A stretch of 64,000 nucleotides of DNA, from NCBI RefSeq assembly GCF_016026235.1, contig NZ_CP065613.1; one strand, 5' to 3'. How positions within the stretch are numbered: position 1 is the stretch's first letter; each line of letters starts with the position of its first letter. The position numbers and the translations under genes are program-made. Source of the stretch: Escherichia coli (GTDB taxonomy: Bacteria > Pseudomonadota > Gammaproteobacteria > Enterobacterales > Enterobacteriaceae). The notes beneath the pieces were generated by a model, which was not told where the DNA came from, did not search any database, and saw nothing but the letters and a program-made list of their open reading frames with translations. Shown here in pieces: positions 20,276 through 21,950 of this stretch.

Positions 20276-20839
20276 TTATTTTTGAGCCTCAAAGTAATTG
20301 AAGAAATATGTGTTATATTTATTTGTGTCTTTTTGTTTTATTCCATTTTTGCTAAAATAACTGTTTTTGTTTGTTGATATCTCTATTTCGATAGATTTTT
20401 CTTTTTTCATATATTCAATTTTGCATTTGTAATATCTAATAACGATATTTTCCCCATCCTTTATAACTTCAAAAATATTTGCATCATGCAGTTTGTCTAA
20501 TTTTCTATTCAAAAAGAAAGCGTCTGTTACCAGCGTTTCAACCTTGTTATTATAAGAAAAAAAGAAGCTCGCTGCACCCATATCGTTGCTTTCAAAAACT
20601 TGCTGTATATTCCCTTTAAAAAGGATGGTTTGCACTATAGTTGTTGGGGAAGAGTTTTTCTTACTATGGTTACTATAAGTTTTCATATTAATAACCATAT
20701 CCTTAAGTATGTCATTTTCCCCATATACTTCAAAGGCAGGTAGGTTTTTATTATAATCTGGATACACTATTATCATGAATAATAGAATCAAGCTTCTCAA
20801 TATAATACTAATCATTTGATTTATTCTTCCGGTGATCAT
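20276..20839 (-). CDS. hypothetical protein with N-terminal hydrophobic anchor or signal peptide; AT-rich foreign DNA
   Basis: ORF in strongly AT-rich DNA; hydrophobic N-terminus MISIILRSLILLFMIIV, otherwise Lys/Asn-rich; overlaps the 3' end of the upstream ORF. Confidence 0.5.
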   Translation of the reverse strand: MITGRINQMISIILRSLILLFMIIVYPDYNKNLPAFEVYGENDILKDMVINMKTYSNHSKKNSSPTTIVQTILFKGNIQQVFESNDMGAASFFFSYNNKVETLVTDAFFLNRKLDKLHDANIFEVIKDGENIVIRYYKCKIEYMKKEKSIEIEISTNKNSYFSKNGIKQKDTNKYNTYFFNYFEAQK

Positions 20840-21629
20840 TAAAACTGCTTTGATTGCAGGTTAAAATCAATTTCCCATTATTATAACACTGCATAGGGAG
20901 AGACTTTAGTGGATTTTTATCATCCGGAAATAAGGCATCCCATCCTTGACCTTCAGAACAGGCAACCATGTATGTTGGTGAAAAAGACCAACCTATATTT
21001 ATTGACCTCATAATCGAAGTTGTCCTAATATCTGGGAAATAAGATGGATAAGTACTTTCTGTTTGTCCCCAGACATTAACGTCCTTAAAATTATCTAATA
21101 GGGATAATTTACTGGCAAAACCTTGTCCTGAATCATCACTTGCATAACTAGTGCGACAACCATACATAACAAACATAGCGTTATTTGACCAGTTAAAATC
21201 AATTGAATCCCATCCTCCGATTATGTTCATTTGTTGTGGGTATTTAGGCACGGAAGGTGTATTTACAGAGTCTGAGGTTGTAGGACCATGAATTGGCCCC
21301 CCATGTGAGAATAAACTGACTTCTTTAACTTTTGCTTTGGTTATACCTCCATTCTTGTTTATAAAGGTTTCTAATATTTCTTTGATTTGATTAAATGTGT
21401 TAATTGATAAATGGTAAACTATCTGTGTTTCTTTTTTATACTCGGGGGAGTAAAGGATGTTGAAATAACGCGTCAGACATGCTTCTTCAAAAATAGAACG
21501 TCGGCTATCACCGGACTCATCAACCCAAAATAATAGAAACAATTCCTTTGGGCGAGATATTTTTTGAGTGACAATGTTGTTTTGTTTCTGGCTTGTTGTA
21601 CCGGAAGTTACTTTTTTATCATAAGTCAT
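20808..21629 (-). CDS. hypothetical protein (273 aa), no domain recognised; AT-rich foreign DNA
   Basis: ORF in AT-rich DNA with no signal peptide; conserved-looking motifs WVDESGDS, SLFSHGGP, MYGCRTSY; AT-rich upstream region 21630-21850. Confidence 0.55.
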   Translation of the reverse strand: MTYDKKVTSGTTSQKQNNIVTQKISRPKELFLLFWVDESGDSRRSIFEEACLTRYFNILYSPEYKKETQIVYHLSINTFNQIKEILETFINKNGGITKAKVKEVSLFSHGGPIHGPTTSDSVNTPSVPKYPQQMNIIGGWDSIDFNWSNNAMFVMYGCRTSYASDDSGQGFASKLSLLDNFKDVNVWGQTESTYPSYFPDIRTTSIMRSINIGWSFSPTYMVACSEGQGWDALFPDDKNPLKSLPMQCYNNGKLILTCNQSSFNDHRKNKSND

Positions 21630-21847
21630 GTTATCGTTTATGCTCTATCAATTTTAACAAAATGTTAAATTACGCAATAATTGTTATAGTGTGTAACCTA
21701 TATTTATGATAAGCAATATGTTTAGCAAGATTCAGGTTTTTTCAGAATTCATAAAGATCGCTCCCCCACAATCTACGACTTTTACCGATTCACCAGTCAT
21801 AAAGCGATGAGTTTGAAATCAGAGGGTAGTTAAGTGCGTTGTTCGTG

Positions 21848-21950
21848 CCAGATGCGGCGTAAACGCCTTAACCGGCCTACAAATCCTTACAAATTCAATA
21901 CATTGCAAGGTCGCGTAGGCCTGATAAGCGAAGCGCATCAGGCACTTGCG
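21848..21950. repeat. REP/BIME element
   Basis: REP consensus pair at the boundary between AT-rich DNA and the transferase genes. Confidence 0.8.

Follow-up and report, generated by a model that had tools for sequence, protein, structure and literature searches.

A probable orphan type VI effector-immunity cassette with a predicted caspase-fold toxin in the Flag-2 cluster of Escherichia coli

The C80 cysteine protease domains of MARTX toxins and of TcdA and TcdB are internal autoprocessing modules activated by inositol hexakisphosphate in the eukaryotic cytosol. The Tae enzymes have papain-like NlpC/P60 folds in which Cys precedes His, and the fold of Tlde1 is that of an L,D-transpeptidase. 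In polymorphic toxins, a class of toxin domains at the C-terminus, named Tox-Caspase, was predicted computationally by Zhang et al. 2012 (PMC3482391). In Pseudomonas aeruginosa the putative cysteine-protease effectors Tce1 (PA0256, DUF4347) and Tce2 (PA2372) are bound by Hcp3 of the H3 type VI secretion system (T6SS) (PDB 9qpe; PMC13323088, PMC8262886), and their dyads were given in 2026 as H186/C240 for Tce1 and H65/C115 for Tce2 (PMC13323088). T6SS-related cargo has also been reported from region VR1 of the lateral-flagella (Flag-2) cluster, which De Maayer et al. 2020 (PMC6993521) describe as a hot spot for low-GC cargo genes and where their report places vgrG-rhs-imm26 (E. fergusonii) and hcp. 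Here we analyze a stretch of 64,000 nucleotides of E. coli DNA (contig NZ_CP065613.1; the window) whose Flag-2 VR1 carries an AT-rich island with two overlapping genes, A and B. We consider it likely, at a probability of roughly 80%, that this island is an orphan T6SS effector-immunity cassette of the polymorphic-toxin type, made up of a caspase-fold toxin (A) and an exported immunity protein (B).

The island and its genes are placed as follows, in positions of the window.

~20256 to 21848, no strand: AT-rich island of 1.59 kb, about 33% GC, flanked by the convergent tagD-like gene and glycosyltransferase gene of Flag-2 VR1
20808 to 21629, minus strand: gene A, a predicted T6SS cargo effector of 273 aa, without signal peptide, whose fold is that of clan CD (caspase-like) cysteine peptidases
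20276 to 20815, minus strand: gene B, a predicted exported, membrane-anchored immunity protein of 179 aa with a beta-sandwich domain; the alternative start at 20839 gives 187 aa

The coordinates and lengths of the two overlapping minus-strand open reading frames (ORFs) given in a preliminary description of this DNA were right, as the ORF list contains 20808..21629 and 20276..20839. In RefSeq the copies of E. coli SMS-3-5 are WP_000220508.1 (A) and WP_000623467.1 (B), both annotated as 'hypothetical protein', and no mention of these accessions was found in papers. The RefSeq start of B in SMS-3-5 is an internal ATG corresponding to window position 20815, which yields the protein of 179 aa and an 8-nt overlap of the start of B with the stop codon of A (ATGATTAG).

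The relatives of A were collected with a profile in an exhaustive search, which recovered 338 representatives, 86 of them at E<=1e-30; a word-indexed homologue search returned 7 (A) and 5 (B) clusters, badly underestimating both families. Nine of the 13 long members carry the domain at the extreme C-terminus, directly after a TIGR03696 Rhs repeat-associated core. These nine proteins span 578-3,576 aa, and only 0-20 residues separate the end of TIGR03696 from the A domain (P0064, P0134, P0145, P0129, P0119, P0093, P0080, P0131 and P0135); in P0064 the Rhs core occupies residues 1223-1312 and the A domain residues 1316-1547. Two members are fusions of a TssD/Hcp N-terminal domain to the A domain, one member has the domain after a HINT domain and one has an N-terminal LysM domain. 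Standalone homologues lie directly 3' of vgrG in three loci, L004, L011 and L012 (Aquimarina muelleri). The L004 homologue (P0007, 40% identity to A) follows a VgrG of 782 aa and is itself followed by an overlapping ORF of 179 aa, and the VgrG of L011 ends in TTR-like C-terminal repeats. As judged from the sequences, these Rhs, Hcp and VgrG architectures are defining for polymorphic-toxin and T6SS effector domains; the vgrG/hcp linkage holds for the homologues, the window copy having no linked vgrG. Together with the exported and linked B described below, they clearly favour the orphan toxin-immunity or effector-immunity cassette that had been proposed from the DNA alone.

Four Bacteroidota-type relatives (P0013, P0020, P0028 and P0039) have, N-terminal to the toxin domain, a repeated module about 80 aa long (signature 'Y.V..Y....IKW.V.VDG...EW.GKEI.V.A'). 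This N-terminal module had no Pfam match in the four proteins and may be a delivery or adaptor domain.

The N-terminus of A was found to be hydrophilic and without a Sec signal peptide, as had been noted before. The protein gave nothing usable in NCBIfam, PADLOC (no match at E<=1) or PHROGs, sequence searches of the PDB with A profiles returned chance matches only, and no Peptidase_C80 match was obtained in Pfam for A or for 82 + 31 relatives. In Pfam, A matched DUF4347 (PF14252, the family of Tce1) weakly, with E 4.8e-4 and 20.4 bits over residues 70-178 (model positions 25-116 of 164). In fold comparison, the best Foldseek matches of A were to the Vibrio RTX cysteine protease domain, the closest solved structure was Tce1 (PDB 9qpe), and DUF4347 was the structurally nearest family. 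The predicted structure is an alpha/beta/alpha sandwich common to caspases, legumain, gingipain, clostripain and C80 domains, which places the modelled A in clan CD (caspase-hemoglobinase fold). For curated sequence libraries it thus remains true, as stated earlier, that no family could be assigned to either protein; in the case of A this was superseded by the fold comparison.

The putative catalytic residues of A are encoded at two sites.

21303 to 21305, minus strand: codon of His109 (motif FSHGGP), predicted catalytic histidine, directly after strand 99-107
21156 to 21158, minus strand: codon of Cys158 (motif MYGCRTS), predicted catalytic nucleophile, directly after strand 147-155

Both residues are conserved in the A family (His109 in 80 and Cys158 in 81 of 82 members), and Gly157 is present in 82/82. 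His precedes Cys, and with the strands taken from the model each stands at the C-terminal end of a beta-strand beside a small residue (S-H109-G and G-C158), which is the arrangement of clan CD.

The hydrophobic N-terminus that had been remarked on in B corresponds to a helix at residues 2-21. An N-terminal export signal is present in all 14 members of the B family, nine of which have a lipobox cysteine, the others, the window copy included, having a signal/anchor segment. No Pfam match was found for B or for any of the 14 members, hence B is neither Imm36 nor Imm57, and NCBIfam, PADLOC and PHROGs gave no usable match for B. Using the B profile, a homologue was detected directly downstream of A in all eight distinct readable loci, namely the window, SMS-3-5, a second E. 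coli allele (L005), Superficieibacter electus, L004, L011, L013 and L012, the last with three tandem B copies. These loci span Enterobacteriaceae and Bacteroidota, and the pair therefore co-occurs elsewhere, outside flagellar contexts too, a point that the preliminary description had proposed to check. B-like genes are also found as orphans, with no A homologue, in a vgrG-linked array of Tenacibaculum finnmarkense. Since B is exported, tightly linked, found in tandem and sometimes orphaned, it behaves as periplasmic T6SS immunity proteins do, suggesting that A acts in the periplasm or envelope. B is probably the immunity protein for A, and the pair probably acts in the periplasm.

The T. finnmarkense array (L014/L015) is composed of vgrG, a gene for a 384-aa protein, an array of small genes that includes the two B-family genes, and a gene for a 1,257-aa DUF4280 (PAAR-like) protein, and resembles a poly-immunity or effector array.

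Two alleles of the cassette occupy the same site in E. coli, with about 127 genomes of the window type and 2 of the L005 type. Two further features are needed for their comparison.

21516 to 21629, minus strand: constant 5' part of A, about 38 codons, encoding the hydrophilic N-terminus and first strand, identical in both E. coli alleles
21630 to 21848, minus strand: AT-rich 5' non-coding region, presumed promoter, near-identical in both divergent E. coli alleles

Sliding blocks from 21635 to 21516 showed 60/60 identity between the alleles, followed by an abrupt fall to 55-75% nucleotide identity over the rest of A and all of B, which sets the breakpoint at about codon 38-44 of A (regions compared: window 21516-21754 and L005 ~6950-7300). 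At the protein level the alleles are 72.5% identical in A and 53% in B. A constant head with an exchanged toxin-immunity tail, as this alignment suggests, is a hallmark of polymorphic toxin loci. The N-terminus of A is also kept in the vgrG-linked L004 homologue, and the constant 5' part is a possible delivery or recombination handle. A scan of this AT-rich DNA for sigma-70 promoters and terminators was uninformative. The ratio of nonsynonymous to synonymous substitution rates (dN/dS) of A between the alleles was 0.15, which points to a functional protein under purifying selection. Of the coding differences between the window and SMS-3-5, 5/5 are nonsynonymous (4 in A, 1 in B) and none synonymous, too few for significance (about P = 0.27 under neutrality). 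The L005 allele has a Fic-domain gene between B and tagD.

The sliding-window profile confirmed the AT-rich stretch reported within the GC-rich flagellar gene string: GC content is 0.55-0.63 up to about 20000, 0.30-0.36 across 20200-21800 and 0.52-0.59 beyond 21800, and the two genes together have 0.326 compared to 0.538 in the remaining window. The E. coli Flag-2 order is lfhA...lfiJ, a tagD-like cytidylyltransferase gene, the insert, a large glycosyltransferase gene, a lafV/FliB-like methylase gene, and lfgN onward. In the empty sites of strains ATCC 8739 and EECO1006 the tagD-like gene is followed 117-143 bp on by the convergent glycosyltransferase gene, and alignment of the junctions to these two sites gave the limits of about 20256-21848. 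The left edge falls within the final three codons of the tagD-like gene, and the right boundary is formed by a repeated element.

21849 to 21950, no strand: repetitive extragenic palindromic/bacterial interspersed mosaic element (REP/BIME), the right boundary of the island, also found in the empty site of ATCC 8739

Because of this element, 5,389 E. coli records gave partial DNA matches of 80-90%. Neither terminal repeats, direct or inverted, nor att-like sites were found beside the island in a repeat search. Compared with SMS-3-5 the island shows 99.56% identity (7 differences in 1,591 nt), whereas the Flag-2 flanks reach just 92-95.6%, indicating that the island is younger than its surroundings and was spread by recombination. 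The segment 20256..21848 is horizontally acquired foreign DNA.

The genes next to the island are in a different state. The VR1 glycosyltransferase gene (21955-24392, minus strand; GT2 N-terminus and TagB-like C-terminus) is split into overlapping ORFs of 558 aa and 270 aa, with a frameshift near 22716-22767; it is a single 814-aa gene in SMS-3-5 and is therefore probably a pseudogene in the window strain. Beyond it, a degenerate IS4-family element (about 24441-26400, GC about 0.45), whose transposase is in at least two ORF pieces (24926..25411 and 25439..26128), interrupts the lafV/FliB-like flagellin lysine-methylase gene, of which the C-terminal 207 codons remain at 24441..25064. Flag-2 VR1 is decaying in the window strain, and the A/B cassette is intact. 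In the closest genome, FDAARGOS_943 (99.9% identity across the query region), a T6SS island lies at tRNA-Asp (aspV; L016), about 20-60 kb beyond the left end of the window. That aspV island holds genes for a Tle1-like protein, an M35 peptidase, VgrG and Hcp and is riddled with the insertion sequences IS1, IS600, IS21 and ISAs1.

The distribution of the cassette was determined in complete E. coli genomes and beyond. The lfiJ-tagD site is present in 1,276 of 5,426 complete E. coli genomes and the insert in about 129 of these 1,276, that is in about 2% of complete E. coli genomes, and about 90% of E. coli Flag-2 loci are without the A-B pair. In S. electus the pair is located between nfo and fruA, a non-flagellar site, and a scan of genome contigs with the A profile revealed only S. 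electus and a Prevotellaceae metagenome-assembled genome. The pair is neither a conserved component of Flag-2 loci nor confined to flagellar contexts, as a Flag-2 gene would be. A is full length in the large majority of E. coli copies, cluster P0001 comprising 352 full-length members in which the dyad is kept. Cluster P0005 (E. coli, 236 aa) is a fusion of the N-terminal half of A to the C-terminal half of B, which indicates an internal deletion predicted to inactivate the cassette in a few E. coli strains. No phage copies of A were found, and the plasmid copies were just two, both truncated and from Acinetobacter. In one of these (L018; Acinetobacter sp. plasmid pYH12138-1, 6019-6944) the A homologue is reduced to the C-terminal 136 aa, without the His region, and is followed by an overlapping ORF for an exported 172-aa protein undetected by the B profile; an Imm41 gene and HipAB modules are nearby. 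L018 may represent the decayed remains of a cassette whose immunity gene is of another family.

In the mechanism that we propose, A, having no Sec signal, would be loaded as cargo on VgrG, or on Hcp in the case of some relatives, and fired by a contractile T6SS. It would then act as a cysteine peptidase or amidase, through the His109/Cys158 dyad, on a target in the periplasm or envelope of the recipient; the single LysM-fused relative hints weakly at a peptidoglycan substrate. B, presumably coupled to A in translation through the 8-nt overlap, would be exported, held in the membrane and would bind and block A in the periplasm of the producer, protecting the producer and its kin. The cassette would have entered VR1 beside the REP element by horizontal transfer from an AT-rich donor and would then have moved among E. 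coli lineages by recombination. As the cassette brings no vgrG with it, its main role in some hosts may be that of acquired immunity.

Several observations weigh against an antibacterial T6SS cassette. The window contains no vgrG, hcp or PAAR gene, the aspV site of SMS-3-5 is empty (L017), and tssC of the FDAARGOS_943 T6SS is split by IS21. The similarity of A to DUF4347 is weak, just 4/82 relatives reaching E<=1e-3; no specific structural relative of B was found in the fold comparison, and the window B is without the lipobox cysteine of its relatives, the L005 allele among them. The 2026 study found no immunity genes for Tce1 and Tce2, considered an antibacterial role of the two improbable and observed toxicity of Tce2 in yeast (PMC13323088). 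The absence of a linked vgrG and the empty or broken T6SS would fit a cassette whose main benefit to its E. coli hosts is acquired interbacterial defence, B guarding against the A-type toxins of competitors and A being an undelivered passenger in decay. The orphan B genes of Tenacibaculum, the A'-'B fusion of P0005, the truncated A on the Acinetobacter plasmid and the five nonsynonymous differences from SMS-3-5 agree with that explanation, which we nevertheless regard as rather unlikely: A and its dyad are intact in most E. coli copies (the 352 of P0001), the dN/dS of 0.15 is low, conservation of the promoter and of the N-terminal handle is suggestive of a functional toxin module, and T6SS content was looked at in two genomes only, SMS-3-5 and FDAARGOS_943. 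An anti-eukaryotic protease like Tce2, with B as an accessory protein, chaperone or regulator, seems improbable. Tce1 is indeed the closest solved structure, neither Tce protein was antibacterial in the 2026 study (PMC13323088), and other toxin domains of clan CD, namely the C80 cysteine protease domains, work within eukaryotic cells; however, A has no Peptidase_C80 match, and all members of the B family are exported or lipoproteins, so that B cannot be a cytoplasmic chaperone. The tandem and orphan copies of B are typical of immunity genes, Tce1 and Tce2 have no such partner, and A and B co-diverge as a unit.

A flagellar accessory factor had been called equally possible in the preliminary description, and the location of the pair in VR1 among flagellin glycosylation genes, as well as the speculation of De Maayer et al. 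that Flag-2 cargo proteins might be secreted via the flagellar system (PMC6993521), would be in keeping with A and B as new accessory factors of Flag-2 that take part, for instance, in modifying flagellin or are substrates of flagellar export. This was not upheld and is very improbable, since about 90% of E. coli Flag-2 loci lack the pair, empty sites exist, the S. electus copy is in a non-flagellar site and the contexts elsewhere are vgrG and Rhs; the pair is foreign in composition, it is much younger than its flanks, and it is intact while the neighbouring Flag-2 genes decay. To a cytoplasmic toxin-antitoxin or anti-phage defence module we give hardly any credence, as there was no PADLOC or PHROG match, no phage copies were found, B is exported and the family architectures are Rhs, VgrG and Hcp, not sensor-effector fusions. 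An autoprocessing 'releasing peptidase' was rejected because the A domain is at the end of the protein or stands alone, leaving no downstream part to be released.

The reading as an orphan T6SS effector-immunity cassette offers a testable function for two 'hypothetical protein' genes in about 2% of complete E. coli genomes, and also for hundreds of Rhs-, VgrG- and Hcp-linked toxin domains. It implies that the cargo of Flag-2 VR1 can be competition weaponry unrelated to flagella. If it is true, caspase-fold peptidases would join the antibacterial T6SS arsenal together with a new immunity family, and Tce1 and Tce2 would gain an antibacterial counterpart with an immunity partner. T6SS and polymorphic-toxin effector-immunity cassettes were already known, as were caspase-fold toxin domains (predicted in 2012, with the Tce1 structure in 2026) and T6SS cargo in VR1. 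New are the A family, for which no curated model in Pfam or NCBIfam and no experimental study was found, the undescribed B immunity family, and their presence in E. coli; the export of B further implies an antibacterial, periplasm-acting clan CD effector. We suggest tentatively, and with considerable doubt, that A and its about 340 representative relatives could be the first antibacterial, periplasm-acting clan CD family of T6SS/Rhs toxins, neutralised by an unrecognised lipoprotein immunity family. The envelope target that they cleave would then differ from those of all known T6SS effectors, being a periplasmic or lipoprotein substrate or else a bond of peptidoglycan, for whose cleavage the fold would be new.

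Among described loci, the A-B island is like the VR1 cargo islands of De Maayer et al. 2020 (PMC6993521) in its lfiJ-lfgN site, low GC content, one or two genes and the many hypothetical proteins; in the sections of that report considered here such cargo was listed just as hypothetical proteins, not as an effector-immunity module. Tce1 shares 13% identity with A, and a PDB profile search with A does not retrieve 9qpe. Tce1 and Tce2 are loaded on Hcp3 and have no neighbouring immunity gene, whereas the A family has an exported immunity-like partner, vgrG/Rhs linkage and a different N-terminal region. The resemblance to Tox-Caspase includes the caspase-like fold, the H...C dyad and the position at the extreme C-terminus of Rhs-type toxins, and Tox-Caspase is delivered by T6SS among other routes. 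On the other hand, Tox-Caspase domains were linked to Imm36 and Imm57 and mostly deemed releasing peptidases (PMC3482391), whereas B matches neither of these immunity families nor any other Pfam family and the A domain is terminal or standalone. A differs from the C80 domains in having no Peptidase_C80 match, in its terminal or standalone position as a toxin domain and in its bacterial immunity partner. In genetic organization A-B is like the Tae/Tai amidases and Tlde1/Tldi1, in which a Sec-less effector gene is followed in a bicistron by the gene of a periplasmic immunity protein, often a lipoprotein. All of these occur beside vgrG/hcp or as orphans and use a catalytic Cys and His, predicted in the case of A. 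Unlike Tae and Tlde1, A has a predicted clan CD fold in which His precedes Cys.

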